From a virus (lineage: Duplodnaviria > Heunggongvirae > Uroviricota > Caudoviricetes), in IMG/VR virus record IMGVR_UViG_2700989168_000004: DNA of 37,712 nucleotides. The stretch is one strand, 5' to 3'. This document shows, piece after piece, positions 5,298 through 37,033 of this stretch. The notes beneath the pieces are model-generated. The model searched no databases, was not told where the DNA came from, and saw nothing but the letters and a program-made list of their open reading frames with translations. The translations under genes were made by a program, and so were the position numbers. Each line of letters opens with the position of its first letter. Within the stretch, counting starts at the first letter, position 1.

Positions 5298-6239
5298 ATG
5301 AGCACTAAATTAACCGGCTATGTATGGGATGGTTGCGCTGCGTCAGGCATGAAATTATCCAGCGTGGCAATTATGGCCCGCCTGGCTGATTTCAGTAATG
5401 ACGAAGGTGTGTGCTGGCCATCAATTGAAACCATTGCCCGTCAGATTGGCGCGGGGATGAGTACCGTCAGAACGGCTATCGCACGGCTGGAAGCAGAAGG
5501 CTGGTTAACGCGTAAGGCGCGTCGCCAGGGTAACCGCAATGCGTCGAATGTTTATCAGCTTAACGTTGCGAAGCTTCAGGCAGCGGCATTTTCTCAACTG
5601 TCAGATTCTGACCCGTCAAAATCTGACGCATCAAAATCTGACCCGTCAAAATTTGATGCGTCGAAATCTGGCAAAAAAGCGGGTTTTCACCCGTCAGAAT
5701 CTGGCGGGGATCCGTCAGTAAAATCAAAACATGATCCGTCAGATAAAAAAACTTCTCGTCCGGACGCTTCGCAACCGGACACGCAGACGGCTGAACAGGA
5801 GTTTTTAACTCGCCATCCTGATGCGGTTGTATTCAGCCCTAAAAAGCGCCAGTGGGGAACGCAGGATGATTTGACCTGCGCACAGTGGCTCTGGAAAAAA
5901 ATCATCGCCCTGTACGAGCAGGCCGCCGAATGTGACGGCGAGGTGGTTCGTCCCAAAGAACCGAACTGGACAGCCTGGGCAAACGAAATTCGCCTGATGT
6001 GTGTGCAGGATGGTCGTACTCACAAACAAATCTGCGAGATGTACAGCCGCGTCAGCCGCGATCCGTTCTGGTGCCGTAACGTGCTCAGCCCGTCGAAGCT
6101 GCGGGAAAAATGGGATGAGCTTTCCCTGCGCTTATCGCCGTCCGTCAGCACGTACACAGAAAAACGCGAAGACCCGTACTTCAAAGCCAGTTACGACAAC
6201 GTGGACTACAGCCAGATCCCGGCAGGATTCAGGGGGTGA
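5298..6239 (+). CDS. replication initiation protein (lambda O-like, N-terminal HTH) with internal origin iterons
   Basis: 313 aa; N-terminal HTH-like segment; central repetitive linker (SDPSKSDASKSDPSKFDASKS) encoded by tandem DNA iterons, as for lambda ori within O. Confidence 0.7.
   Translation: MSTKLTGYVWDGCAASGMKLSSVAIMARLADFSNDEGVCWPSIETIARQIGAGMSTVRTAIARLEAEGWLTRKARRQGNRNASNVYQLNVAKLQAAAFSQLSDSDPSKSDASKSDPSKFDASKSGKKAGFHPSESGGDPSVKSKHDPSDKKTSRPDASQPDTQTAEQEFLTRHPDAVVFSPKKRQWGTQDDLTCAQWLWKKIIALYEQAAECDGEVVRPKEPNWTAWANEIRLMCVQDGRTHKQICEMYSRVSRDPFWCRNVLSPSKLREKWDELSLRLSPSVSTYTEKREDPYFKASYDNVDYSQIPAGFRG
5601..5750. repeat. replication-origin-like iterons (about 13-bp units, GTCA(A/G)AAT(C/T)TGAC, 14-15 bp periodicity) followed by an A-rich tract
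   Basis: At least five tandem copies plus degenerate copies (CCGTCAGAATCTGG, CCGTCAGTAAAATC, CCGTCAGATAAAAAAAC) inside the O-like gene. Confidence 0.6.
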
Positions 6240-6241
6240 TC

Positions 6242-6730
6242 ATGAGTCTTTTGAATGAAGTTCAGAAATACATTGAAGCCCATCCGGGCTGTACTTCCGG
6301 AGATATTGCGGATGCTTTTGCCGGTTACTCACGGCAGCGCGTTCTGCAGTCAGCAAGCAAGTTACGTCAGAGTGGGCGTGTGGCTCACCGTTGTGAAGGA
6401 GATACACGCAGACATTTCCCGCGCCTGACTGAGAGAGCGCAGGAACCGGAACCACAACCAGTTCGTGAAACCAGACCTGTGCGCAATTTCTATGTCGGCA
6501 CTAACGATCCCCGTGTGATTTTGTGCCTGACCCGCCAGGCGGAAGAACTGGAGTCCAGGGGCTTATACCGTCGTGCTGCAACGGTGTGGATGGCGGCATT
6601 CCGTGAAAGCCACTCCCAGCCAGAACGAAACAATTTTCTGGCGCGTCGTGAGCGGTGCTTACGGAAAAGCAGCAAGCGCGCTGCATCGGGTGAAGAGTGG
6701 TATCTGTCAGGGAATTACGTGGGGGCTTAA
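6242..6730 (+). CDS. PerC-like transcriptional regulator (tentative)
   Basis: C-terminal region LESRGLYRRAATVWMAAF resembles the PerC/Pch family motif as I recall it; ATG at 6242 follows AGGGGG RBS and overlaps the O stop. Confidence 0.4.
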   Translation: MSLLNEVQKYIEAHPGCTSGDIADAFAGYSRQRVLQSASKLRQSGRVAHRCEGDTRRHFPRLTERAQEPEPQPVRETRPVRNFYVGTNDPRVILCLTRQAEELESRGLYRRAATVWMAAFRESHSQPERNNFLARRERCLRKSSKRAASGEEWYLSGNYVGA

Positions 6731-9918: not shown

Positions 9919-9935
9919 TTTTGTGGAGAAAGTTG

Positions 9936-10313
9936 ATGCGTGATATTCAGATGGTTCTTGAGCGTTGGGGAGCGTGGGCGGCTAATAATCATGAAGATGT
10001 GACCTGGTCGTCCATTGCCGCCGGTTTTAAGGGATTAATTCCTTCAAAAGTAAAATCTCGCCCACAATGTTGTGACGATGACGCGATGATCATTTGCGGG
10101 TGCATGGCCCGTCTGAAAAAGAACAACAGCGATTTGCATGATTTATTGGTGGACTATTATGTCGGCGGCATGACTTTTATGGCGCTTGCACGTAAGCATG
10201 GGCGATCTGATTGTTGGGTTGGCAGGATGCTCCAGAAAGCTGAGGGCGTAGTGGAGGGTATGCTGATGGTGTTGGATCTCCGATTGGAGATGGATGCTGA
10301 TTGTTCGAAATAA
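9936..10313 (+). CDS. late-gene antitermination protein Q
   Basis: About 125 aa with conserved Cys cluster ([16 protein letters not shown]), located immediately upstream of a short leader plus terminator and the late region; GGAGA RBS before ATG 9936. Confidence 0.75.
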
Positions 10314-10412
10314 TTAAAGGAAAAGTTGCTGTCTGATTGTCATTAGTCTAACATTTTAAATGTTGGAATCGCAACGTAGTTATTACCATATAACAGCTTG
10401 TTTCCTGATTTA

Positions 10413-10441
10413 GCCAGCCTCCCCAAAGGCTGGTTTTTTTC
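10413..10441 (+). terminator. tR'-type rho-independent terminator downstream of the Q gene (late promoter/qut region at about 10320-10410)
   Basis: Stem CCAGCC / GGCTGG with 8-nt loop followed by TTTTTTTCT. Confidence 0.6.
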
Positions 10442-10468
10442 TAATAAGTATTATTTCGGGTAGGGATT

Positions 10469-10993
10469 TTATTGTTTAACCCATAATAATTCATTGACAT
10501 TGAATCCCAACTTTTGAGCGGTTCGCACATAGTCTGCTTTTACTTTATCTGGAATAGTTGGGGTCCTTGCCAGAATCCATAGGTATTCTCTGTTCGGACC
10601 ACTGACAAGAGCATACTTATACTCATCATCCAGTTTGATTACATTATAGCCACCATAGAAGGGGCCAAAAAACGAAACCTTCAATGCTGCAGTTTTAGTA
10701 TCTCCAGTAAAGTATGCTTTACCTTCGCTCTCGCTCCATTTATTTTTCGTTGGATCGTATCCACGGTTAAGTACACGAATCCCTCCGTCGTTCCGTTTTC
10801 CATAAGTAGCGCTGACCTGTTCCAGATCACGTTCGAACCGGTTCTCGAGGCGAGCTATTTCATACCATTTTCCGAGGTAGCGGTTGGCGTCAAAATTTGT
10901 AATCGGCTGCACACCTTTAGGTGGTGTCGGGGCCTTACATGCTATAAGAGTGAAAGAGAGTGCAATGCCAGTCAACACAGGCCATAACTTCAT
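10469..10993 (-). CDS. blc: outer-membrane lipocalin (Blc homolog) lipoprotein
   Basis: Signal peptide with lipobox (LIAC), and long colinear matches to E. coli Blc as recalled (NFDAxRYLGxWYEIAR, KVSFFGPFYGGYNVI, YLWILxRTP). Confidence 0.9.
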   Translation of the reverse strand: MKLWPVLTGIALSFTLIACKAPTPPKGVQPITNFDANRYLGKWYEIARLENRFERDLEQVSATYGKRNDGGIRVLNRGYDPTKNKWSESEGKAYFTGDTKTAALKVSFFGPFYGGYNVIKLDDEYKYALVSGPNREYLWILARTPTIPDKVKADYVRTAQKLGFNVNELLWVKQ

Positions 10994-11185
10994 AATAAAT
11001 CCTGTACTTTTGATAGTTGAGAGTAAGTATGAAAGATAGATGATTACGACCGATCACTTAAAGAACTTTCATACTATATTAGGAATAGTCCATAACAGAA
11101 AAATTGTCAGTGATGACGCCAGAAAGGCAATTTATTCCGTGCACTACACAGTTTATGTGTTAATGAATTAGTCAAGGGGGAGAAT

Positions 11186-12145
11186 ATGATAAAAAAACCT
11201 GTGATTGGAATCAGCGGTTGTTTGGCCGGTTCTGCTGTTCGTTTTGATGGTGGTCACAAAAGAGCTGACTTTTTAATGGACAAATTAGTGGAATGGGTAA
11301 CATTCAGACCAGTATGTCCGGAAATGGCTATAGGGCTGCCAGTTCCGCGTCCTGCTCTACGTCTTGTGCGCTCGACGCAAGGAAATATACGGATGTGTTT
11401 CAGCCACGACCAGAATGAGGATGTGACAGAGAGAATGACAGAGTTTAGTCGTTCTTATATGGACAAATTAAAGGATGTATCGGGGTTTGTGGTTTGTGCT
11501 AAATCTCCCAGCTGTGGCATGGAGCGCGTGCGTGTCTATGATGAAAATGGTAATCGAGGTCGTAAAGATGGAGTGGGACTATTTACGAGTACTTTGATGG
11601 AAAAGTTTTCCTGGCTACCGGTTGAAGAGGATGGGCGATTACATGATCCAGTGCTTCGTGAGAATTTTGTTGAAAGAGTTTTTGCTTTGCATGAGCTCAA
11701 TCACCTTTACAAGGAGAAATTATCAAGAAGAGAGTTATTAGCTTTTCATAGTCGTTATAAGCTTCAGTTGTTGTCGCATAGTCAGGCAGGCTATAAAGAT
11801 ATGGGACCATTTGTGGCTGCAATACACGAGTGGGCGGACCTTGAATCATACTTTGAGGTGTATCGTGATAAGCTGATGGCGATTCTCAGAAAACCTGCAT
11901 CACGTAAAAATCACACGAATGTGCTGATGCATATACAGGGGTATTTTAGTAACTACTTAAGTACACGCCAGCGTAAAGAGTTGAGCGAGGTTATACTTAA
12001 CTATCGTTCTGGCACATTACCTCTTCTTGCGCCGTTGACTCTGCTGAAGCATTATCTGGGTGAGTATCCTAATGATTACTTGCTTACACAGAATTACTTC
12101 GATCCCTATCCGGACGAACTGGCTCTAAGACTGATGGTAAATTAA
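11186..12145 (+). CDS. DUF523 (TudS-like thiouracil desulfurase family) - DUF1722 fusion protein (tentative)
   Basis: N-terminal GISGCLAG..VRFDGG and further conserved Cys residues resemble DUF523; C-terminal half resembles YbgA/DUF1722; RBS GGGGGAG before ATG. Confidence 0.5.
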   Translation: MIKKPVIGISGCLAGSAVRFDGGHKRADFLMDKLVEWVTFRPVCPEMAIGLPVPRPALRLVRSTQGNIRMCFSHDQNEDVTERMTEFSRSYMDKLKDVSGFVVCAKSPSCGMERVRVYDENGNRGRKDGVGLFTSTLMEKFSWLPVEEDGRLHDPVLRENFVERVFALHELNHLYKEKLSRRELLAFHSRYKLQLLSHSQAGYKDMGPFVAAIHEWADLESYFEVYRDKLMAILRKPASRKNHTNVLMHIQGYFSNYLSTRQRKELSEVILNYRSGTLPLLAPLTLLKHYLGEYPNDYLLTQNYFDPYPDELALRLMVN

Positions 12146-12496
12146 TTGTATGCGATATCATCCAAAAGGATGAGTTCCTGCATGCAGGATATTTACAATC
12201 GTAAAAACTACACTATGATACCCAGAGTGTCAGTTTGTATAAAAACTCTGTTTACGCTGAAGAAACAATTGAGATGCAACTTAAAGTTGGTAAACATGCC
12301 AGTCAAAATATATAATATTATGATTCCACGCAGCTATATATAATATAACAGATTGGTTTAATAATTTGTCTTTGTGAGTTAAATACATAATTTTATACTT
12401 GTGATGCAATGAAATTTTCCTTATTGTTGAACTTGCGAATATTGATTTTCCACCTATACTTACCTGGTGTAACCCCAATGATATCAGGTGGATAAT

Positions 12497-13228
12497 ATGC
12501 CATACATATGTTCTATCATTTTGGTGTTGAACTCGTTTGATGTCCGAATTGGTAAAGAAGATATTTTGTTTAAAAAAGGAAGTGCTGTTCTCATTGATTA
12601 CAATTTAAAAGATTTTTTTTCATCAAATATAGATCATGTAATGATCGTAGATGTTGAAGAGAAAACAGTTAATGATTTCTTTAAAAGCAACACACTCTCA
12701 CCTTTTTCTGTAAGAAGGTTTTATCCGGCATACTTGATGGTGGAATGTGAAGATTTTTCATTGTTAAAGAACTTGATTGCATGCTTGAATTGTGATGGCA
12801 GAACTGTGGATTTTGTTAGAAATCAAATATCACTTGCATGTCTTGCTATCTTATCTTCAGAGAAAATAGTGCAAAGTTTTTTATTTGGATGTCTTAATAG
12901 TTTAGGAAGTAAAGTTAAGGCTATTATTCACACGGATATATCTGCAGCATGGAGACTTTGTGATATATCTTCAAGACTGTATCTGAGTGAAAGTCTGTTA
13001 AAAAGAAAATTAAAGCACGAAGGCTTATCATTTAGTAAGTTAATTCTTGAAGAGCGAATGGTGATGGCGGAAAGGTTATTAAGCTACAATTTATATTCTG
13101 TTGGAAAAGTTGCTGAGATATGCGGTTATGAAAACACGTCATATTTTGTGAGTGTTTTCAGAAGATATTTTGGTGTTCCTCCCCATCAATATTCATCAAG
13201 ATTTTTTTTAGAAAAAGACATGATGTAA
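12497..13228 (+). CDS. AraC-family transcriptional regulator
   Basis: C-terminal dual-HTH AraC signature (...KVAEICGYENTSYFVSVFRRYFGVPPHQY); gene is strongly AT-rich; ATG 12497 after AGGTGG. Confidence 0.85.
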   Translation: MPYICSIILVLNSFDVRIGKEDILFKKGSAVLIDYNLKDFFSSNIDHVMIVDVEEKTVNDFFKSNTLSPFSVRRFYPAYLMVECEDFSLLKNLIACLNCDGRTVDFVRNQISLACLAILSSEKIVQSFLFGCLNSLGSKVKAIIHTDISAAWRLCDISSRLYLSESLLKRKLKHEGLSFSKLILEERMVMAERLLSYNLYSVGKVAEICGYENTSYFVSVFRRYFGVPPHQYSSRFFLEKDMM

Positions 13229-13289
13229 CGTGATGCGTTTTAATGATTTTGTAATTTTCGTATTTGATAATTGTATGATGCTTTCAGCT

Positions 13290-13321
13290 ACGCCAGAATA
13301 ATCGCTGGCGTTTTTCTTTTT
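13290..13321 (+). terminator. rho-independent terminator after the AraC-family gene
   Basis: Stem ACGCCAG / CTGGCGT followed by TTTTTCTTTTT. Confidence 0.6.
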
Positions 13322-13416
13322 GAATAGATGTTCAAGCCTTACGCTAATGTAACTTCTATACCTTTCCTCTTCGTTCCGAACCGTGTACACCATCCGTTAT
13401 TTGCGGAGGTGAGGCT

Positions 13417-13632
13417 ATGAAATCTATGGATAAGTTAACAACGGGCATTGCCTACGGCACCTCCGCAGGCAGTGCTGGCTACTGGTTTTTACAGCTGCTC
13501 GATAAAGTCACGCCCTCACAGTGGGCAGCAATAGGTGTGCTGGGTAGCCTGGTATTTGGCCTGCTGACGTACCTGACAAACCTTTATTTCAAGATTAAAG
13601 AAGATAAGCGCAAGGCTGCGAGAGGTGAATAA
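13417..13632 (+). CDS. pinholin (phage 21 S21-type class II holin) with dual-start motif
   Basis: Near-identical by recall to S21 ([24 protein letters not shown]...KAARGE); two Met codons (M1, M4) as in antiholin/holin S2171/S2168. Confidence 0.9.
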
Positions 13633-14129
13633 TGCCTCCATCATTACGAAAAGCCGTTGCTGCGGCTATTGGTGGCGGGGCTATTGCTATAGCATCTGTG
13701 TTAATCACTGGCCCAAGTGGTAACGATGGTCTGGAAGGCGTCAGCTACATACCATATAAAGATATCGTTGGTGTATGGACTGTATGTTACGGGCATACCG
13801 GAAAAGACATTATGCTCGGTAAAACGTATACCGAAGCAGAATGCAAAGCCCTCCTGAATAAAGACCTTGCCACTGTCGCCAGACAAATTAACCCGTACAT
13901 CAAAGTCGATATACCGGAAACAACGCGCGGCGCTCTTTACTCGTTCGTTTACAACGTTGGTGCTGGAAATTTCAGAACATCGACACTTCTTCGCAAAATA
14001 AACCAGGGCGATATCAAAGGCGCATGTGATCAGCTACGGCGCTGGACATACGCTGGCGGTAAGCAATGGAAAGGGCTGATGACTCGCCGTGAGATTGAGC
14101 GTGAAGTCTGTTTGTGGGGGCAACAATGA
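13632..14129 (+). CDS. SAR (signal-anchor-release) endolysin, lysozyme family
   Basis: N-terminal hydrophobic Gly/Ala-rich SAR segment followed by lysozyme catalytic region; start overlaps holin stop (TAATG). Confidence 0.9.
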
Positions 14130-14569
14130 GTAGAGTAACCGCGATTATCTCCGCTCTGGTTATCAGCATCATCGTCTGCCTGTCATGGGCTGTTAATCAT
14201 TACCGTGATAACGCCATGACCTACAAAGAACAGCGCGACAAAGCCACATCCATCATCGCTGACATGCAGAAGCGTCAACATGATGTAGCTGAACTCGACG
14301 CCAGATACACAAAGGAGCTTGCTGATGCTAACGCGACTATCGAAAGTCTTCGTGCTGATGTTTCTGCTGGTCGTAAGTGGCTGCACGTCAAAGCAGTCTG
14401 TCCGGACAAGCATAAAACCACCGCCGCCTCCGGCGTGGATGATGCTTCCAGCCCCAGACTTACTGACACCGCTCAACGGGATTATTTCGTTCTCAGAGAG
14501 CGCATCGAAACCATAACTAACCAATTGAATGGCCTGCAAGAATATGTGAGATCACAGTGTTCATATTAG
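14126..14569 (+). CDS. i-spanin Rz
   Basis: N-terminal TM segment, coiled-coil-rich body, directly after the endolysin (ATGA overlap); contains embedded Rz1 frame. Confidence 0.8.
14358..14516 (+). CDS. o-spanin Rz1 (lipoprotein) embedded in the +1 frame of Rz
   Basis: Signal peptide with lipobox (VVSGC) followed by proline-rich segment ([10 protein letters not shown]); entirely inside Rz. Confidence 0.7.
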
Positions 14570-14607
14570 AAAAGTCTTATCATAAGATTTTTGTATATGG
14601 ATGCATT

Positions 14608-14982
14608 ATGTCTCAATACGCTCACGTTGCTTTAATCGCTTATCATTTGGTGGCTGATAGCTCAATGACTCCTCGTGATGCATGGGATGCAGCTATCGCA
14701 GAGGTTACAGAAAGCGAATCGTCAAGAAAGAAGATATGCCCAAGGGCAACATTTCTCGCCCTGGCGGATAGCGGTTACCTGAAGAATGTAAAACCACTGC
14801 ATGGGGAGAAAAAAGGCGGTAAGTTGTACCAAAGGGCAATTGAAGTTGCGAATCTGATTCTTGATTTACCCGGAATCAGTAAAGCTGAATTGGTTGATAA
14901 AACTGGTTACAAAGACAGGCAAGGGTCTTATGACCTGATTCTCGCTCTGTATCATCATGAGCAACTCCAGCGATCGGAATAA
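14608..14982 (+). CDS. hypothetical 124-aa protein (unknown function)
   Basis: ORF between spanins and packaging genes; the track start at 14557 is a GTG overlapping Rz, so ATG 14608 is preferred; no motif recognised. Confidence 0.45.
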   Translation: MSQYAHVALIAYHLVADSSMTPRDAWDAAIAEVTESESSRKKICPRATFLALADSGYLKNVKPLHGEKKGGKLYQRAIEVANLILDLPGISKAELVDKTGYKDRQGSYDLILALYHHEQLQRSE

Positions 14983-15099
14983 TTATCCCAGCATCAGTGT
15001 CAAAAATAGGCAGTGATACGCTATTTTCCTGAAAATACTTTACTAACATTTTATGAGAATTATCCTAGTAATGTGTTTATTTAAAAGGAGTTTGGGTTT

Positions 15100-15368: not shown

Positions 15369-15776
15369 ATGCCACCACGAACCCCAAAAGCCTGCCGTGT
15401 TCGCGGCTGCCGCCATACCACAACTGNNNNNNNNNNNNNNNNNNNNNNNNNNNNNNNNNNNNNNNNNNNNNNNNNNNNNNNNNNNNNNNNNNNNNNNNNN
15501 NNNNNNNNNNNNNNNNNNNNNNNNNAGCAATACAAGCCGGGCCAGTCCAGACACCAGCGCGGTTATGGTTCGAAATGGGATGTTATCCGTGAACGTGTGC
15601 TCAAGCGTGACAAAGGACTGTGTCAGTTATGTCTGCGTGGTGGTGTGGTACGTGAGGCGAAAACCGTTGACCACATCATCCCTAAAGCGCATGGCGGCAC
15701 TGATGCCGACAGCAATCTGCAGAGCCTGTGCTGGCCGTGTCATAAGGCGAAGACGGCCCGTGAACGGTTGAAGTAA
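15369..15776 (+). CDS. phage HNH endonuclease (packaging-associated); interrupted by N run 15427-15525
   Basis: C-terminal HNH motif (VDHIIPKAHGG...N...CWPCH); N-terminal CRVRGC zinc-finger-like start; immediately upstream of terminase genes. Confidence 0.8.
   Translation: MPPRTPKACRVRGCRHTTTXXXXXXXXXXXXXXXXXXXXXXXXXXXXXXXXXXQYKPGQSRHQRGYGSKWDVIRERVLKRDKGLCQLCLRGGVVREAKTVDHIIPKAHGGTDADSNLQSLCWPCHKAKTARERLK
15427..15525. other. run of 99 N (assembly gap or masked bases)
   Basis: Literal n characters in the sequence. Confidence 1.
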
Positions 15777-15901: not shown

Positions 15902-16487
15902 ATGGCTGGAACGGCGGGGCGTTCCGGGCGTCGCCCCAAGCCAACGGCGCGCAAGGCGCTGNNNNNNNNNNNNNNNNNNNNNNNNNNNNNNNNNNNNNNN
16001 NNNNNNNNNNNNNNNNNNNNNNNNNAACCCCGGCAAGCGAGCCCTGAACAAAGATGAACCTGTTTTTACGCCCATCAAAGGTGTTGAGCCACCGGAGTGG
16101 TTCGCAGAAGAAGATCTCCCTCTCGCCACGATCATGTGGCAACTGACAACCAAAGAACTCTGCGGTCAGGGCCTGCTGTGCGTGACTGACCTTGCGGTAC
16201 TTGAGCGGTGGTGCGTGGCCTATGAGTTCTGGCGACGTGCCGTGAAAAATATTGCCAGACAGGGCAACACCATCACCGGTGCAATGGGTGGCATGGTTAA
16301 AAATCCGGAGCTGACCGCCAAGAAAGAACAGGAGTCCGAGATGAGCAGCACGGGGGCAATGCTCGGACTCGACCCCAGCAGCCGCCAGCGTCTGATTGGC
16401 CTGGCGGGGCAGAAGAAAGCNNNNNNNNNNNNNNNNNNNNNNNNNNNNNNNNNNNNNNNNNNNNNNNNNNNNNNNNNNNNNNNNTAA
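15902..16487 (+). CDS. terminase small subunit (P27-family-like); interrupted by two N runs, frame inferred
   Basis: Starts MAGTAGRSGRRPKPTARKAL (typical of this family) at ATG 15902; resumes after the gap in the track frame; stop TAA directly after the second N run. Confidence 0.7.
15962..16025. other. run of 64 N
   Basis: Literal n characters. Confidence 1.
16421..16484. other. run of 64 N
   Basis: Literal n characters. Confidence 1.
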
Positions 16488-22992: not shown

Positions 22993-23549
22993 AACTGACG
23001 CCTGTTATTGCTGCACTGCGTGCCCGCTGTCCGTATTTTGAAAACCGGGTGGCAGGCGCGGCCCAGTTCAAAAATCTGCCGGAGGTCGGAAAGCTGAGAC
23101 TCCCGGCGGCGTATGTGGTACCGGGTGATGACTCTCCGGGAGAAAACAAAAGCCAGACCGACTACTGGCAGGAGCTGAAAGAGGGCTTCTCCGTGGTTGT
23201 CATACTGAGTAACGGGCGTGATGAGCGCGGTCAGTTTGCCTCGTATGATGTGGTGGACGATGTCCGGCAGATGCTCTTTAAGGCTCTGCTGGGCTGGAAC
23301 CCGGAGGCGTGCGGTAACCCGATTACCTATGACGGCGGCACGCTGCTGGATCTGAATCGTCATGAGCTGATTTATCAGTTCGATTTTTCGGTCATCAGCG
23401 AGCTGACTGAAGACGATACCCGCCAGCAGGATGATCTGAACAGTCTGGATGAACTGCAAACGCTGGCGATTGATGTTGATTATCTCGAGCCCGGTAACGG
23501 GCCTGACGGCGATATCGAACATCACACCGAAATAACCCTTCCTTCCTGA
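22989..23549 (+). CDS. Mu gp37-like (DUF1834) tail-associated protein, tentative
   Basis: Position immediately before sheath module in a Mu-type tail cluster; family from recall. Confidence 0.45.
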   Translation: MKLTPVIAALRARCPYFENRVAGAAQFKNLPEVGKLRLPAAYVVPGDDSPGENKSQTDYWQELKEGFSVVVILSNGRDERGQFASYDVVDDVRQMLFKALLGWNPEACGNPITYDGGTLLDLNRHELIYQFDFSVISELTEDDTRQQDDLNSLDELQTLAIDVDYLEPGNGPDGDIEHHTEITLPS

Positions 23550-23557
23550 GGATCCTC

Positions 23558-23728
23558 ATGTTTGTCAAACCTGTTAAAGGGCGGTCAGTTCCTGACCCTG
23601 CCCGCGGCGACCTTTTGCCCGCCGAGGGGCGAAATGTTGATGAGAACAACTACTGGCTGCGCCGTGAAGCAGCGGGTGATATCCGGCGCGTGAATAAAAA
23701 GGTGAATACCGATGACGATAAGCTTTAA
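23558..23728 (+). CDS. small ORF preceding the tail sheath (56 aa), tentative
   Basis: ATG at 23558, stop TAA 23726-23728 overlapping the sheath start; not in the ORF track (below 60 aa). Confidence 0.35.
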   Translation: MFVKPVKGRSVPDPARGDLLPAEGRNVDENNYWLRREAAGDIRRVNKKVNTDDDKL

Positions 23729-25272
23729 CACCATTCCGTCGAATACGCTGGTTCCGTTGTTTTATGCGGAAATGGATAACCAGGCGGCGAATACTGCACA
23801 GGACAGCGGAGCATCGCTGCTGATTGGTCATGCCAATAACGGTGCAGAGATTGTTGCCAACAGTCTGGTGCTGATGCCATCGGCAGACTATGCACGCCAG
23901 ATTTGTGGTGCGGGAAGTCAGCTGGCGCGTATGGTCGAGGCTTATCGCCAGACCGACCCGTTTGGTGAACTGTATGTGATTGCCGTTCCTGAATCCACGG
24001 GCGCGGCGGCAACAGTTACGCTGACGGTGACCGGCGCGGCAACCGAAACCGGCACGGTGAATGTTTATGTGGGACGTACCCGCGTGCAGGCACCGGTGAC
24101 CAACGGCGATAACGTCGCGACGATTGCCAGCAGTATCCAGGATGCCATCAATGCCGTTCCGACCCTGCCGTTTACGGCTTCATCTTCGGCAGGCGTGGTC
24201 ACACTGACCGCGCGTCATAAGGGGCTTTGCGGGAATGAAATTCCTGTCAGCCTCAATTACTACGGCTTTGGTGGGGGCGAAGTGCTGCCAGCGGGCGTAC
24301 AGATTGCCGTGGCGACGGGTACCGCCGGAACGGGCGCTCCTGTTCTCACCGGCGCGGNNNNNNNNNNNNNNNNNNNNNNNNNNNNNNNNNNNNNNNNNNN
24401 NNNNNNNNNNNNNNNNNNNNNNNNNNNNNNNNNNNNNNNNNNNNNNNNNNNNNNNNNNNNNNNNNNNNNNNNNNNNNNNNNNNNNNNNNNNNNTGGTGAC
24501 CGAGATGAACGATACCAGCGGTCGCTGGAGCTATGCGCGTCAGCTGTATGGTCATGTGTACACGGCAAAGATCGGCACGCTGTCAGAACTGGTGACCGCA
24601 GGTGACCAGTTTAACCAGCAGCACATTACCCTGGCGGGATACGAAAAAGAGACCCAGACGCCTGCCGACGAGCTGGCGGCAAGCCGTACCGCCCGCGCAG
24701 CGGTGTTTATTCGCAACGATCCGGCACGTCCCACGCAGACCGGTGAGCTGGTGGGTATGCTGCCTGCGCCGAAGGGGAAACGGTTCACGATGACCGAACA
24801 ACAGACCCTGCTGTCTCATGGCGTGGCAACGGCGTATGTCGAAAGCGGGGTGCTGCGCATTCAGCGTGATGTCACCACGTACAGGAAAAACGCTTACGGT
24901 GTTGCGGATAACAGCTACCTCGACAGCGAGACGCTGCATACCAGCGCGTATGTACTGCGCAAACTGAAATCCGTCATTACCAGTAAGTACGGGCGTCACA
25001 AGCTTGCCAGCGACGGTACCCGCTTTGGTCCCGGTCAGGCGATTGTCACCCCGGCGGTGATCAAAGGGGAACTGCTGGCAACCTACCGTCAGCTTGAGCG
25101 TGCGGGGATCGTGGAAAACTACGAACTTTTTAAGCAGTACCTGGTTGTGGAGCGTGATGCCAGCGATCCGAACCGCCTGAACACGCTGTTCCCGCCTGAC
25201 TATGTTAACCAGTTGCGTGTCTTTGCCGTGGTTAACCAGTTCCGTCTTCAGTATTCAGAGGAGTCCGCATAA
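23712..25272 (+). CDS. contractile tail sheath protein (Mu gpL-like); interrupted by N run 24358-24493
   Basis: N- and C-terminal parts lie either side of the gap in different nominal frames; combined size about 520 aa. Confidence 0.85.
24358..24493. other. run of 136 N
   Basis: Literal n characters. Confidence 1.
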
Positions 25273-25628
25273 TGGCCCGTATCGGGGGAACCTGTTATTT
25301 CAAAATTGACGGTCAGCAGCTATCGCTGACCGGCGGCATTGAGGTGCCCATGAACAGGACGGTCAATGATGACATCATCGGCCTGGACGGTTCAGTGGAC
25401 CGCAAGGAAACTCACCGTGCGCCTTATGTCAAAGGGACCTTCAAGGTGCCGAAGAATTTTCCGGTGAGCAAAATCACCTCGTCTGATGAGATGACCATCA
25501 CTGCCGAGCTGGCGAACGGTCAGGTCTATGTATTGTCGTCCGCCTGGCTGCACGGAGAAGCGAACCATAATGCCGAAGAAGGCACGGTTGATCTTGAGTT
25601 CCACGGTGAAGAAGGGGATTACCAGTAA
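25272..25628 (+). CDS. tail tube protein (Mu gpM-like)
   Basis: 118 aa directly after sheath, ATGA-coupled. Confidence 0.8.
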   Translation: MARIGGTCYFKIDGQQLSLTGGIEVPMNRTVNDDIIGLDGSVDRKETHRAPYVKGTFKVPKNFPVSKITSSDEMTITAELANGQVYVLSSAWLHGEANHNAEEGTVDLEFHGEEGDYQ

Positions 25629-25897
25629 TGAAAGAGCTTGAGTTAAAGAAACCGATTACCGCTCATGGCGAGACACTCTCCGTACTGGAGTTTGATGAGC
25701 CCACCGGGAAAGATGTCCGCGAGCTGGGGTATCCCTACCAGATGAATCAGGATGAGTCCGTCAGACTTCTGGCGCATGTGGTATCGAAATACATTGTGCG
25801 GCTGGCGAAAGTGCCGCAAAGCTCTGTCGACCAGATGTCTCCGGCAGACCTGAATGCAGCGGCGTGGCTTGTGGCTGGTTTTTTCCTCCAGGCCTGA
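25628..25897 (+). CDS. tail assembly chaperone (short form)
   Basis: 89-aa ORF between tube and tape measure; ends just after a T TTT TTC slippery heptamer. Confidence 0.75.
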   Translation: MKELELKKPITAHGETLSVLEFDEPTGKDVRELGYPYQMNQDESVRLLAHVVSKYIVRLAKVPQSSVDQMSPADLNAAAWLVAGFFLQA

Positions 25898-26046
25898 CGG
25901 CTGAATACCTCACTGATCGCTTCTTTGACTGCGCCAGTTACTGGCGCATTAATCCTTTCGAATTGCTGAATATGCCGATCAGTGAAATTCCCTTACTGGT
26001 CAGTCAGGCAAACAGGATAGAGCAGGAGAAACGCACACATGGCTGA
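25628..26046 (+). CDS. tail assembly chaperone, -1 frameshift-extended form (predicted)
   Basis: Slippery site TTTTTTC at 25879-25885; the -1 frame continues open (FFPPGLTAEYL...EKRTHG) to 26046, overlapping the tape-measure start. Confidence 0.5.
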
Positions 26047-27874
26047 ATTTGAGCTTAAGGCGTTGATCACCGGTGTCGACAGGCTTTCTCCCGCGCTGTC
26101 GAAAATGCAAAAGAAAATCCGGGGATTTAAACGCCAGGCGGAAGAAGCGTCACAGGGTGGGCTGGCGCTTGGTGGCGGACTGGCAGCGGGTCTGACGCTT
26201 TCCCTGAAATCTTATGCCGATCAGGAAAACGCCGCCACCGGGCTGAAAGTCGCTATGATGGATGCGAACGGCGAGATTGGAAAGCGCTTTCAGGACATCA
26301 ATAAACTGGCTATTGGCCTGGGTAACCAGCTACCCGGTACAACGGCTGATTTCCAGAACATGATGCAGATGCTGGTGCGTCAGGGGATCCCGGCAGAAAA
26401 CATTCTGAGTGGTGTGGGTAAAGCGACAGCTTATCTTGCGGTACAACTGAAAAAAACACCGGAAGCGGCTGCTGAGTTTGCTGCAAAGATGCAGGATGCT
26501 ACCGGAACGGCGTCAGAAGACATGATGGGGCTGTTCGACACTATCCAGAAGGCGTTTTATCTGGGCGTGGACGATACCAACATGTTGTCCTTCTTCACTA
26601 AAACCAGCTCTGTTCTGAAGATGGTGAACAAGGACGGTCTTCAGGCTGCACAGAGCCTTGCCCCCATCAGCGTCATGATGGATCAGATGGGGATGAACGG
26701 GGAGTCGGCAGGTAACGCCCTGCGAAAAGTTATCCAGTCCGGATTAAGCGTTAAGAAAATCAGGGACGTCAATAAAGTCATGGCCCGCCAGAAACTCGGA
26801 GTGCAGCTCGATTTTACTGACGGCAAAGGGAGTTTTGGCGGTCTTGATAACATGTTCAGGCAACTGGCAAAGCTGCGAAAACTGACCGACGTTAAGCGAA
26901 CAGGTGTACTTAAGGCAATATTTGGTGATGATGCCGAAACCCTTCAGGTGGTCAATGCTCTGATCGATAAAGGAAAGGATGGTTACGATCAGATCCAGCA
27001 GAAGATGAATAAACAGGCCAGCCTGAATAAACGTGTTCAGGCACAGCTTGGTACGCTGTCCAACCTGTGGGAGGCAATGACGGGGACCGCAACTAACGGT
27101 CTTGCAGCTATTGGCGGCGCATTTTCTGGTGACGCTAAAAATATCACGCAATGGCTGGGGGAGTTGGGGGAGAAATTCACGAAGTTTGCGGATGAAAATC
27201 CCCGGGTTATTCGCGGCGTCGTCGGGCTTGCTGCTGGTCTTGCGATTCTGAAACTGGGATTGATGGGCGTTGGCGGTGCCATCAGTATTGTCAGCAGGAT
27301 CATGTCGATGACGCCGATTGGCATGATTGCGACGGCGATAGCCCTGGCTGCGGGATTAATTATCACTAACTGGGATGTTGTCGGACCTTATTTTAAGAAA
27401 CTCTGGGAAACCATTGGTCCTTATTTTGAGGCTGGCTGGGAACTCCTTAAGAAAGTTTTTGCCTGGTCGCCGCTGGGGATGGTGATCAATAACTGGGGGC
27501 CGGTTGTTAAGTGGTTTCAGGATATGTGGGACAAGCTGAAGCCAATTATTGAGTGGTTTACCGACAGTTCCGGTGACACGGTCGATGCCATTAACTCTGC
27601 TCAGTGGGGCGCGGGTGCTTATGATGCTTATGGGACGGGAATACCGGCGCGGGGATACACACCTTATCCGGCGGTAGATCCGGCTCAGTCAAACAACGCC
27701 TCCGGTGCCACAGGCCCGAATCCCTTCATGATTAACAAAGCTTCTGCGCCAAAAGTTGATGGTGAGATCAAGGTCTCTTTTATGAATTCGCCCCCGGGTA
27801 TGCGGGTTATGGAAACGCGATCCAGCGGTTTTGATGTCAGCCATGATGTTGGCTATACGCGCTTTGGCAGGTAA
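26039..27874 (+). CDS. tail tape measure protein
   Basis: 611 aa, Ala/Gly-rich with hydrophobic central segment, in the canonical position. Confidence 0.85.
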   Translation: MAEFELKALITGVDRLSPALSKMQKKIRGFKRQAEEASQGGLALGGGLAAGLTLSLKSYADQENAATGLKVAMMDANGEIGKRFQDINKLAIGLGNQLPGTTADFQNMMQMLVRQGIPAENILSGVGKATAYLAVQLKKTPEAAAEFAAKMQDATGTASEDMMGLFDTIQKAFYLGVDDTNMLSFFTKTSSVLKMVNKDGLQAAQSLAPISVMMDQMGMNGESAGNALRKVIQSGLSVKKIRDVNKVMARQKLGVQLDFTDGKGSFGGLDNMFRQLAKLRKLTDVKRTGVLKAIFGDDAETLQVVNALIDKGKDGYDQIQQKMNKQASLNKRVQAQLGTLSNLWEAMTGTATNGLAAIGGAFSGDAKNITQWLGELGEKFTKFADENPRVIRGVVGLAAGLAILKLGLMGVGGAISIVSRIMSMTPIGMIATAIALAAGLIITNWDVVGPYFKKLWETIGPYFEAGWELLKKVFAWSPLGMVINNWGPVVKWFQDMWDKLKPIIEWFTDSSGDTVDAINSAQWGAGAYDAYGTGIPARGYTPYPAVDPAQSNNASGATGPNPFMINKASAPKVDGEIKVSFMNSPPGMRVMETRSSGFDVSHDVGYTRFGR

Positions 27875-34230: not shown

Positions 34231-35751
34231 CTATAGGTTAAGTTTTTTGTTAAATACTAATATTACTCTTCCTTCAAAGTTCAAAACTTCGTCAGGCTTA
34301 CCTAATTGTTCTTGAATACCTGCAAGGCAGGATGTCATTTCTTTACATCGTTCAGGTTCGTTAGCTATGGAAACTGCTATAAACTGTCGCTCAGGAGCAG
34401 AATTGAACGCCTCCTTGCTATGCCAAGAAGCCAGTGTCTGTTGTCTCACGCCAGTAAAGTTAATTTTCCCCGAATCAGCATTAAAGAAAACAGGAGTTAT
34501 CTGTATGTCCCCACCAGATAACCAATTTACAGTCATTGACAAATCCCAAAAAGAGCCGTACCCATAATGGAGATTATTTTTTTTTAAAAAATCAATGTAT
34601 GATTTAACAATCTTCTCCTGATCGTGTAATGGTGAAGCATTATTTGTGTAAGATTTAATTGAACTGATCGAAAATAAAAATGCGATTAGATAAAATAATA
34701 TCTTTGCTTTTGTTGATGTACCGATACAGCACAATATCAGTGCGAAACAGGTAACATTCATAAAGAAACGCATGCTAATATAATCAGGGGATTTATAGCT
34801 CAGTATGAATGATGAGACAATACCTGCGATAGATAATAATGAAAATAACACAATATAAATACGGTATGTGTTTTTTTTATTGTCCGATAAAACAAACCAC
34901 GCAGATGTAATAATGGCAATGAACCAAATGACAAATGAGGCGTAAGATGTTGCGTTATTGTCGACAACTAATAAATTAAGACTTTTTCCTATTAACAGAA
35001 TGCACCATTTTGCATTTAAAATCATATCATTGAGTGATACAATTTCAAATTGGTGGGGAGGTATGTTAAGTAGATTTTGCAATACATTGGAAAGAGAGAT
35101 TAAACATGCAAATAGTATTAATGCAGTATGCTTAAATAATTTTTTATCCCATACAGAGAATAAAAAGTAAGATATTAATAGTGGAATAAAAAATGCAGCT
35201 GTAAACCACGGATCGGATACGCTGGAAAATAATGCTGTCAAACTTAAGAGGAGAGTGATAAATATATTTTTATACTGTATGTTGAAAACAGATATAAGCA
35301 AGCATAAAAAGCCGAAAGCGTTTGTTGAATTATGAGAAAAAGGATGTGATACAAAACCATAAGTGTATGAAAAATATGGTATTAGAGATAGAAGTATAAT
35401 AGAAAATAAAGCAGGGGTAAACCCGAATGCCTTACGTAGCGTTAACATCGCTGCTATTACTATAGCAATAGAGAAAACTGCAGTTGATAATCTTAATGCT
35501 ACTAAGCCATCATCACCTAACAGCATATAAAATAAAAAGTTAATTGGGTAAACGGTGAAATACCAATTATCCACGGTTGGTTTCCAGTCGTGGATTGATG
35601 ATATACCATTCTCTAAAATATGCCTCCATACAATTGGGCTGTTAGCAACATCCGGTTCAACTGGAAAGTATCTGGTAGTCAACCAAGTTATTAGGAGTGC
35701 TGATAAAGCCAATAATATTTTTAATGCTGATTGTTTAATACATATGCTCAT
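34231..35751 (-). CDS. serotype-specific O-antigen glucosyltransferase (Gtr type-specific, polytopic membrane protein)
   Basis: 506 aa, many hydrophobic helices, AT-rich, directly downstream of gtrA-gtrB on the same strand; type cannot be assigned by eye. Confidence 0.75.
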   Translation of the reverse strand: MSICIKQSALKILLALSALLITWLTTRYFPVEPDVANSPIVWRHILENGISSIHDWKPTVDNWYFTVYPINFLFYMLLGDDGLVALRLSTAVFSIAIVIAAMLTLRKAFGFTPALFSIILLSLIPYFSYTYGFVSHPFSHNSTNAFGFLCLLISVFNIQYKNIFITLLLSLTALFSSVSDPWFTAAFFIPLLISYFLFSVWDKKLFKHTALILFACLISLSNVLQNLLNIPPHQFEIVSLNDMILNAKWCILLIGKSLNLLVVDNNATSYASFVIWFIAIITSAWFVLSDNKKNTYRIYIVLFSLLSIAGIVSSFILSYKSPDYISMRFFMNVTCFALILCCIGTSTKAKILFYLIAFLFSISSIKSYTNNASPLHDQEKIVKSYIDFLKKNNLHYGYGSFWDLSMTVNWLSGGDIQITPVFFNADSGKINFTGVRQQTLASWHSKEAFNSAPERQFIAVSIANEPERCKEMTSCLAGIQEQLGKPDEVLNFEGRVILVFNKKLNL

Positions 35752-35753
35752 GG

Positions 35754-36674
35754 TTATTTTCTACCTTTCTTCAAAATATACTTAGGTCTTGATTTTGTTT
35801 CTAAGTAAATTCTACCTATATATTCACCGAGAACACCAATCCCGATCAGTTGCACTCCACCCAAGAAAAGTATTGATACAAGCAGGGAGGGATACCCGCG
35901 TACTGGGTTACCAAAGACAAGGGTGTCTATAATCATCCATGCACCATATAAAAATGAAATGCTTGCAACAAACAAGCCTATATAAGTCCATACGCGAAGA
36001 GGAAAGGTTGAAAAACTTGTGATACCTTCCAGTGCCAGATTCCATAATTTCCAGCCATTAAATTTTGAGATGCCAGCAACACGCTCTGCGCGTACATATT
36101 CAACGACATCCGTCTGACCACCCACCCAGCTCAGTATGCCTTTCATGAAAAGATTGCGCTCAGGCAACAGTTTAATGTTCTCCACAACCTCACGAGACAT
36201 GAGTCGAAAATCTCCGACATTTTCCTCGATCTTTGGGGTGCTTATTTTGTTGTGTAATTTATAGAACCACTCAGCTGTCTTACGTTTCAGTCGTCCATCA
36301 GTTGAGCGGTCTGAACGTTTAGCAAGCACCATGTCAGCACCTGCCTGCCACTTTTCAATAAGATGAGGGATAACCTCAATTGGGTCTTGCAGGTCGACAT
36401 CAATAGGAATTACAGCATCGCCGCTTGCATGGTCTAACCCTGCAAATAAGGCTGGTTCTTTACCAAAGTTGCGTGTAAATGACAGCGGAACAACTAGCGG
36501 GTCTGAAACAGCCAGCGCGTTAATAATTGACTCTGTGGCATCTTTACTTCCGTCATTTATGAATACAATTTCTACTTCATATGGCTTCAACTCTTGGAAT
36601 TCACGTACCGTTTTATAGAAAACAGGTATCGCTTCTTCTTCATTGAAGACAGGAACGACAAGAGATATTTTCAT
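35754..36674 (-). CDS. gtrB: bactoprenol glucosyltransferase GtrB (GT2 family)
   Basis: 306 aa with GT2 signatures ([21 protein letters not shown]) and C-terminal TM segments. Confidence 0.9.
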
Positions 36675-37033
36675 TTCGCATCCCTAAAGACAATGAACTT
36701 TGAATAGACGAAACCGCACACCAGACTGATGGCGGAGAAGGTGATAAGAGTGACTATTGGAGGAAGTGAGCATTTATCAGCTGCCCAACCAACAATCACA
36801 CTCAATATTCCCATAAATCCCACGTATAACATGTAGCGCATCGCTGTAGTCGATGCTTTGAATGTGAATCTTGCATTCGCGAAGAAGCTAAAGCTCACAG
36901 CCACTACGAAACCTGTGAAGTTTGCCAGAGCCTGACTGGTATGTGCGGCATAGATACATACACCAAAAACCACCCAGTGTATAAGTGTGTTCAGCACACC
37001 TATAGATGTGTACTTTACAAATAACTTTAACAT
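36671..37033 (-). CDS. gtrA: GtrA flippase-like small membrane protein
   Basis: 120 aa, near-identical by recall to serotype-converting phage GtrA ([27 protein letters not shown]...). Confidence 0.9.

Follow-up and report, generated by a model that had tools for sequence, protein, structure and literature searches.

An AT-rich AraC/XylS-type regulator of the PatE/PsrA/AppY clade carried as cargo in a prophage

What does a strikingly AT-rich transcription factor gene do inside a temperate phage genome, and where did it come from? This question is raised by IMG/VR record IMGVR_UViG_2700989168_000004, a Caudoviricetes sequence of 37,712 nucleotides (the window herein), in which an araC-like gene had been described, in a sequence-only reading of the DNA, as a prophage-borne regulator of foreign origin that may rewire host expression. 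Our analysis indicates with near certainty that the product is an AraC/XylS transcription factor of the clade formed by PatE, PsrA, PsrB, GadW, AppY, and YdeO and that its gene is carried as cargo by a lambdoid prophage of E. coli. The regulator is an uncharacterised, ordinary member of a known prophage-borne AraC-type class, to which we add a shared slot between Q and the lysis genes, linkage to a validated RudS gene, and a high rate of frameshifts.

Family, fold, and closest relatives of the regulator

The regulator frame runs from ATG 12497 to a TAA stop at 13226-13228, and a longer variant of the open reading frame (ORF) begins at GTG 12488. ATG 12497 is the RefSeq start for the identical gene (100% identity, WP_001146308.1), found at 14352-15083 of a RefSeq genome that we call L001, and it is preceded by a Shine-Dalgarno-like AGGTGG at 12486-12491 that is invariant among divergent alleles. 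The striking composition noted from the sequence was readily reproduced. The G+C content of the gene is 31.8% (26.6% at third codon positions) against 50.1% for the whole window, and only 2.1% of 732-nt windows reach a value this low. All stretches below 36% G+C fall in 11838-13493 or in a second AT-rich island at ~33.9-36.0 kb, and the drop is local, with 48% G+C in the neighboring Q gene, 44% in blc, 43% in the ybgA-like gene, and 49% in the holin gene. Current annotation offers only “helix-turn-helix domain-containing protein” or “hypothetical protein” for the product, which belongs to phage protein family phrog_1450, listed there with function unknown.

Two Pfam profiles, HTH_18 (1.1e-14, 54.9 bits, cutoff 33.6) and HTH_AraC (2.1e-11, 44.1 bits, cutoff 26.6), matched residues 161-237, and this C-terminal domain with its two helix-turn-helix motifs confirms the AraC-family call made in the sequence-only reading. 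At the other end of the protein, alignment revealed the start motif MxxxCS(V/I)I common to the regulator, PatE, PsrA, GadW, AppY, and YdeO, with M1 and C5 invariant. When we compared the regulator by BLASTP with proteins taken from annotated genomes, we obtained alignments covering residues 1-235 for PatE (ECs_0287; 53.6% identity over 235 residues), PsrA (ECs_1087; 39%), GadW (34%), AppY (32%), and YdeO (32%); similarity to GadX was limited to the DNA-binding domain (41%). Identity to PatE differs by domain, at 40% for residues 1-134 and 72% for residues 135-235. Over the DNA-binding domain, identity is 56% to PsrA and 41-47% to GadW, GadX, AppY, and YdeO. The first recognition helix is identical to that of PatE and the second is close to it. 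We treated ECs_0287 as PatE because O157 prophage Sp1/CP-933H has no other AraC-type gene and published descriptions give Z0321 (PatE), in O-island 8, as the CP-933H regulator; we infer this identity strongly, and the same protein occurs in locus L003.

In a neighbor-joining tree, the regulator, its alleles, and a relative at 64% identity form the sister of the PatE group; the Psr group branches next, followed by AppY, GadW, and YdeO. Orthology to PatE was rejected on the overall identity, the divergence of the N-terminal domain, the different locus of patE, and the split between the groups in the tree, and the regulator represents a paralogous lineage. YdeO was rejected as an orthologue, the equivalog cutoff of NCBIfam model NF007407 having been failed, and is a relative only. 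GadX, HilD, and HilC were rejected on NCBIfam equivalog scores far under their cutoffs.

An AlphaFold2 model of the regulator (mean predicted local distance difference test score of 84.8) gave a structural view of these relationships. Foldseek searches with the full-length model returned CsvR, Rns, and ToxT at probability 1.0, with template modelling (TM) scores of 0.47-0.55 over ~250 aligned columns, and the model fits the two-domain plan of the Rns/ToxT type in which an N-terminal beta-barrel-like domain packs on the DNA-binding domain. Among solved structures, these fatty-acid-responsive virulence regulators give the best full-length matches (TM score of about 0.54); however, the regulator is only 17-20% identical to them, its N-terminal domain is shorter (~134 residues), and the overall root mean square deviation (rmsd) is ~7 Å. 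The model also superposes on the DNA-binding domains of GadX, MarA, and AraC. For the GadX domain (3mkl), the sequence profile gave E = 3e-33 and the structures gave TM scores of 0.86-0.91 with an rmsd of 1.4-2.1 Å. The sequence profile to Rns covered residues 68-234 only (E = 4e-24), and its ranking agrees with that of the structure search.

The comparison also turned up a point of annotation for psrA itself (Sakai Sp4, ECs_1087; 13678-14391 of locus L007). The gene is annotated as 195 aa (13804-14391); followed further upstream, the open frame reaches a Met from which the protein would be 237 aa long and begin MVVVCSVIMV, which fits the clade motif. The annotated start is thus probably too far downstream.

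A cargo module between Q and the lysis genes

Homology of the window to the K-12 prophage DLP12 stops at 10295 and restarts at 13406, just ahead of the holin gene, and the DLP12 slot between Q and the lysis genes holds nmpC with IS5. The intervening segment, 10296-13405, is therefore a cargo module (Table 1). In Shiga-toxin phages this slot is occupied by stx. The module fits what is expected of a phage moron in that it is absent from DLP12 at the same position and the G+C content of its regulator gene is unlike that of the backbone. With phage genes around it, including repressor, Cro, Q, holin, lysozyme, Rz, terminase, portal, capsid, and tail genes, the prophage setting assumed in the earlier reading is confirmed. 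Lysozyme and Rz genes follow the holin gene, and the RefSeq start of Q is the equivalent of window position 9936.

The lipocalin gene blc is the first of the module and is oriented against the late-gene direction. A 192-bp intergenic region (34% G+C) separates it from the divergent rudS-like gene, and a 351-bp region (31.6% G+C) lies between the latter and the regulator gene. The rudS-like product shares 93% amino acid identity with H3V29_gp66 (RudS_vir) of phage 1H12 and keeps Cys12, Cys44, and Cys110. RudS_vir lowered 4-thiouridine in E. coli tRNA, and E. coli itself has no RudS (PMC11417400), so RudS is supplied by the prophage.

The same module was found on the isolated phage IdasGreatGrand (regulator gene 99% identical), on the lambda-like phages 2G7a and 1H12, and on one Qin-like and one lambda-like prophage. 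The full blc-rudS-araC order was present in 71 of 80 IMG/VR loci (contig ends truncate the remaining nine), as well as in loci L002, L009, L010, L011, and L102. The module is therefore mobile between lambdoid phage backbones. Relatives of the regulator at 64% and 56% identity sit directly between the holin and Q genes of other Pfam families, with neither blc nor rudS present; psrA of Sakai Sp4 also lies just downstream of Q. Clade members thus occupy the Q-to-lysis slot behind three different Q families, and the slot is a recurrent home for this regulator clade. Rfam gave no family match anywhere in the window, and a repeat search in 10300-13450 yielded only short two-copy matches of no evident meaning.

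The regulator gene is framed by candidate signals of its own. Two promoter-like sites upstream, from which transcription is predicted to begin near 12226 and 12467, fall in blocks that are kept between alleles while their flanks diverge, and an intrinsic-terminator-like hairpin lies between the gene and the holin. The stem of this hairpin has a centroid-fold energy of −11.3 kcal/mol, and it is kept in six of six aligned contexts, the 56%-identity relative included; it belongs to the cargo module and not to the DLP12-type backbone. The layout is that of a putative promoter, gene, and terminator, as in a phage moron. A further hairpin downstream of Q, kept in loci with the same Q type, would from its expected position be a tR'-type terminator.

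Table 1. Features of the regulator locus and of the window discussed in the text
Feature	Position	Strand	Evidence or remark
PerC-domain gene, second putative cargo regulator	6236..6730	+	Pfam PerC 7.7e-09, 36.1 bits (cutoff 22.6)
Late-gene antiterminator Q, DLP12 quuD type	9921..10313	+	Pfam Phage_antitermQ 2.5e-51; 88% nt identity to DLP12 quuD region
Cargo module blc + rudS-like + araC-like	10296..13405	.	Inserted between Q gene and holin; 3.1 kb
Terminator-like hairpin	10412-10435 (feature listed to 10445)	+	~100 nt downstream of Q
Blc-type outer-membrane lipocalin gene	10469..10993	-	Pfam Lipocalin_2; NCBIfam Blc subfamily 314.5 bits, cutoff 267
TudS-DUF1722 fusion, “YbgA family”, RudS_vir orthologue	11186..12145	+	Pfam 2-thiour_desulf + DUF1722
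Promoter-like site, distal	12192..12219	+	TTTACA-16-TATGAT; 10/12 consensus positions
Promoter-like site, proximal	12433..12460	+	TTGCGA-16-TATACT; -10 within invariant block TTTCCACCTATACTTAC
AraC/XylS-family regulator gene	12497..13228	+	243 aa, intact in window; ORF, Pfam, RefSeq identity
N-terminal domain, residues 1-134	12497..12898	+	Beta-rich region then helices; starts with clade motif
T8 homopolymer, codons 39-42	12613..12620	+	Frameshift hotspot specific to this allele
DNA-binding domain, residues 135-235	12899..13201	+	Two helix-turn-helix motifs; recognition helices SESLLKRKLK, SYFVSVFRRYFG
Intrinsic-terminator-like hairpin	13290..13321	+	ACGCCAG...CTGGCGT + T run; between regulator gene and holin
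Holin, essD type, first lysis-cassette gene	13417..13632	+	Pfam Phage_holin_2_1; 94% nt identity to DLP12 essD

Spread, selection, and frameshifted copies

A 1.27-kb region matched 1,086 of 5,426 complete E. coli genomes, 588 of them at ≥99% and 432 at 80-90% identity, so that the regulator or a close allele is present in about one-fifth of complete genomes of the species, many of them clinical isolates. At lower stringency, PatE-type genes join the matches. Searches of 5.8 billion proteins returned close relatives solely from Escherichia/Shigella or their phages, plus single Salmonella and E. albertii entries. A one-genome-per-species scan, based on exact peptide patterns and hence weak evidence of absence, gave only a misbinned contig and a distant match confined to the DNA-binding domain. 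The former is a 3.2-kb contig (locus L020, JARKOR010000151.1) that carries a 99% identical regulator copy within a “Candidatus Nanosynbacter” metagenome-assembled genome; almost certainly it is a piece of an E. coli phage that was binned in error. We describe the clade as Escherichia-restricted. Low G+C content is found across it (AppY 31.7%, PatE 35.2%, YdeO 39.5%), so a recent import cannot be read from the composition of the regulator gene. The “foreign origin” proposed from the sequence alone could not be traced: we found no donor outside Escherichia, and the trait that suggested one belongs to the whole clade. Such a composition is in keeping with phage cargo of a class that has been resident for long and is probably silenced.

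When we compared the regulator with alleles at 87-90% nucleotide identity, the ratio of nonsynonymous to synonymous divergence (dN/dS) was 0.24-0.27 at dS 0.30-0.35, and the ORFs were intact in all four divergent alleles compared. A dN/dS of about 0.25 between intact divergent alleles shows that the protein is under long-term purifying selection. Neighboring genes gave dN/dS of 0.04-0.24 with much lower dN; the regulator evolves several times faster than blc, rudS, and Q. In strain EC0885, the regulator allele has a dS of 0.30 against 0.045-0.05 for its neighbors, which indicates that the allele was exchanged independently of them.

Among near-identical copies a different pattern emerged. The copies in the window and in IdasGreatGrand are intact; by contrast, all four near-identical copies that we fetched, picked for matches 1-2 nt short, are flagged “frameshifted” by the NCBI annotation pipeline (PGAP). 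Their lesions comprise shortening of the T8 tract at 12613-12620 to T7 or T6 and of a T6 tract at 12877-12882 to T5; one copy has three lesions, among them a second frameshift, close to 13212, and a nonsense codon at 12601. When we searched with a 60-nt probe spanning the T8 tract, 248 copies matched exactly and another 335 fell in the 95-99% band, 583 near-identical copies altogether, and 18 of 19 sampled rows of that band were shorter by 1-2 nt. Among IMG/VR copies of this allele, which come mostly from isolate genomes, T7 occurred in 7 of 60 and T9 in 1 of 60, in a sample that favors intact copies. T7 was found on at least five single-nucleotide polymorphism (SNP) backgrounds. Protein clusters of 195 aa (restart at Met49, counted from ATG 12497) and 133 aa fit these lesions. 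In the 86% allele, all 20 IMG/VR copies have the full 237-aa ORF. The T8 tract is specific to this allele: in its place, other alleles carry TTTTCTTTT or T6, and a comparable run is missing from PatE and PsrA. We read the tract as a fragile site through which settled prophages repeatedly lose the gene, rather than as a switch that has evolved. Since frameshifts are so frequent, finding the gene in a genome is no guarantee that the regulator works.

In locus L072, we considered whether T9 and a 1-nt deletion 19 nt upstream might form a compensating pair, and we rejected this possibility: a stop lies between the two changes and the ORF ends at codon 36, so this is a double lesion and not a repair. 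A second T8 tract is present at 13202-13209 (+ strand), eight codons ahead of the stop, and length variants at 13212, 13219, and 13227-13228 yield products of 241 and 248 aa whose only difference is in the tail past the DNA-binding domain.

Proposed role and competing explanations

The closest characterised relatives, PatE, PsrA/PsrB, and AppY, are prophage regulators that alter host acid-resistance and type III secretion genes. Reviews describe PatE and PsrB as activators of gadE and hdeAB that raise acid survival and PsrA/PsrB as repressors of type III secretion via GadE; gadE is a direct target of AppY according to the AppY paper. Expression of these relatives is conditional: patE is RpoS-dependent, appY depends on H-NS and RpoS, among others, and relief of Hha/H-NS silencing raises psrA. 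Because the recognition helices are near-identical to those of PatE, we consider the most likely role of the regulator, with a probability of roughly 0.55, to be that of a conditionally expressed activator of host GAD (glutamate decarboxylase)/hde acid-resistance promoters. The rewiring of host expression foreseen in the sequence-only reading would thus rest on homology.

Under this proposal, the regulator in a lysogen would be transcribed from its own promoter or promoters in the 350-bp, 68% A+T upstream region, with transcription stopping at its own terminator, and its expression would probably be low and conditional, as in patE, appY, and psrA. The protein would bind AT-rich sites through its recognition helices and activate host acid-resistance promoters (gadE, hdeAB), with knock-on effects through GadE. 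Upon prophage induction, Q-modified RNA polymerase would be expected to read through the regulator gene too, since the gene lies downstream of Q in late-gene orientation. If the regulator behaves like PatE, PsrB, and AppY, a common temperate phage alters the survival of its host in stomach acid and possibly other traits via GadE.

Known systems share some features with the regulator and differ from it in others. PatE (Z0321/ECs_0287, CP-933H/Sp1, E. coli O157:H7), the closest characterised relative, is similar in length (247 vs 243 aa), AT-rich, prophage-carried, and starts with the same motif; however, its gene lies at the end of a degraded prophage by insertion sequence (IS) remnants and not between Q and holin. 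The PatE regulon has been measured (gadE, gadBC, and hdeAB up, some genes of the enterocyte effacement locus (LEE) down). Of the O157 prophage genes for PsrA/PsrB (Z1789/ECs_1087, Z2104), which in LEE-positive strains are linked to the control of type III secretion, psrA shares the slot, a few genes downstream of Q and ahead of the lysis genes. It is more distant and less AT-rich (42% G+C) than the regulator gene and is not beside blc and rudS: tRNA genes follow it, pchA is near, and effector pseudogenes lie elsewhere in Sp4. The K-12 proteins AppY, GadW, and YdeO, all of which converge on gadE, are full-length homologues that begin with the clade motif and whose recognition helices closely resemble those of the regulator, yet at 32-34% identity the regulator is an orthologue of none of them. 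AppY is also prophage-borne and matches the regulator gene in composition, but is encoded at the far end of DLP12, outside the Q-to-lysis slot. The stx and nmpC morons of lambdoid phages share the position between Q and holin, candidate promoter- and terminator-like signals of their own, and a composition unlike the backbone; their cargo is a toxin or a porin, in contrast to the transcription factor, lipocalin, and tRNA-modifying enzyme found here. For annotation purposes, it is useful that several lineages of the clade share one slot and that the gene is accompanied on its travels by a tRNA desulfidase validated by experiment.

A bioRxiv preprint (10.1101/2025.08.01.668021) describes overexpression of “PatE (CIW80_12240)” of E. 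coli Nissle, which we rejected as this gene. Its “patE” qPCR (quantitative PCR) primers match K-12 gadW with 1-2 mismatches and have no match in the window, and Nissle gadA is CIW80_12250, two locus tags away. The preprint's “PatE” therefore appears to be gadW, and the higher acid survival that it describes is no evidence here.

Several observations weigh against an acid-resistance role. A literature search by the protein accession numbers of the regulator found no match. The best NCBIfam match, over the whole length, is the YdeO model at 127.3 bits, far from its cutoff of 348. With an N-terminal domain so unlike that of PatE, the signal sensed, and possibly the partners, may differ. Promoter-like matches in the region number 14, against 10.9 ± 3.6 in shuffled sequence; this is no excess, and the two promoter-like sites are therefore candidates only. 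Lastly, an estimated 317 of 583 near-identical copies (~54%) carry a shortened tract, a count inflated by clonal oversampling and possibly by homopolymer errors of long-read assemblies. With about half of these copies frameshifted, loss of the regulator is tolerated or even favored in many hosts.

This last point is the core of an alternative in which the regulator is a dispensable, largely silent passenger in the course of being lost: it would sit in a permissive slot, silenced by nucleoid proteins and inactivated in settled prophages. The frameshifts in all of the fetched copies, the three lesions in one of them, the recurrence of T7 on separate backgrounds, and the high A+T content of the gene and its upstream region (68%), typical of H-NS targets, all fit such a passenger. 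The intact copies in the window and IdasGreatGrand, the purifying selection between alleles, the full-length copies of the 86% allele, and the inflated frameshift counts do not, and we regard this explanation as unlikely, if deserving of real weight. The possibility of a silenced and decaying gene, raised in the earlier reading, is accordingly borne out in part: it holds at the population level and not for the present copy or over the long term. Less likely again is that the regulator controls its own module, blc and/or rudS, rather than chromosomal regulons. AraC-family regulators often adjoin their targets, the three genes travel together on four different backbones, and blc and rudS diverge from the AT-rich region between them. 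However, psrA and the 64% and 56% relatives occupy the slot without blc or rudS, both genes are also missing from the vicinity of patE (albeit at the end of a degraded prophage), the EC0885 allele was swapped without its neighbors, characterised relatives act on chromosomal promoters, and our repeat search revealed no motif common to the intergenic regions of the module.

A reversible ON/OFF switch at the T8 tract, giving mixed regulatory states in lysogens, would account for T6, T7, T8, and T9 on near-identical sequences, contracted as well as expanded, on several backgrounds. The tract is not kept across alleles or relatives, however, and further lesions in some OFF copies (L015, L098, L072) point to decay. 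An 8-nt tract is also short for high-frequency slippage. We consider phase variation highly improbable. We give still less credence to a role in the phage's own late or lysis functions. In every context seen, the gene does directly precede the holin and points the same way as the late genes; nevertheless, DLP12 has the same Q and lysis genes without it, a terminator-like hairpin of its own stands ahead of the holin, and none of its relatives has a known action on phage genes. A broader and very doubtful extension would make blc-rudS-araC a coordinated “stress kit” in the Q-to-lysis slot. Here the Rns-like N-terminal domain would sense a lipid or a fatty acid as its cue, with a possible link to the lipocalin, and couple acid-resistance control to lysogeny and to induction by Q read-through; the T8 tract would let lineages switch the system off, and the clade would be a cargo class of the stx slot.

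Alongside the regulator that we propose to act on acid resistance, the window contains a second putative cargo regulator, a PerC-domain gene, which bears out the earlier suspicion of a PerC-like gene elsewhere. The ORF passes the Pfam PerC cutoff and falls in phrog_1324 (“transcriptional activator”), and the identical RefSeq locus is annotated as a PerC family regulator. Its 164-aa product has the PerC domain at residues 100-151, and its N-terminal 100 residues match phrog_23071; the protein thus appears to be a fusion.

The window includes 363 bases in N runs (15427-15525, 15962-16025, 16421-16484, and 24358-24493), which break the HNH endonuclease, small terminase, and tail-sheath regions and make ORF calls there unreliable. 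The tail-sheath region is split around one of the runs into the overlapping ORFs 23712-24605 and 24235-25272. In L001, the tail-sheath gene (25390-26886; window ~23535-25031) is flagged as a pseudogene with an internal stop, and a defective prophage is possible.

The second AT-rich island, at 34231-37033 (- strand, 31-37% G+C), contains genes for a GtrA-like protein (120 aa, PF04138) and a GtrB-like protein (306 aa, GT2) and a 506-aa ORF without a Pfam match. Judging from these genes, the island looks like a gtrABC cassette for O-antigen glucosylation (serotype conversion).

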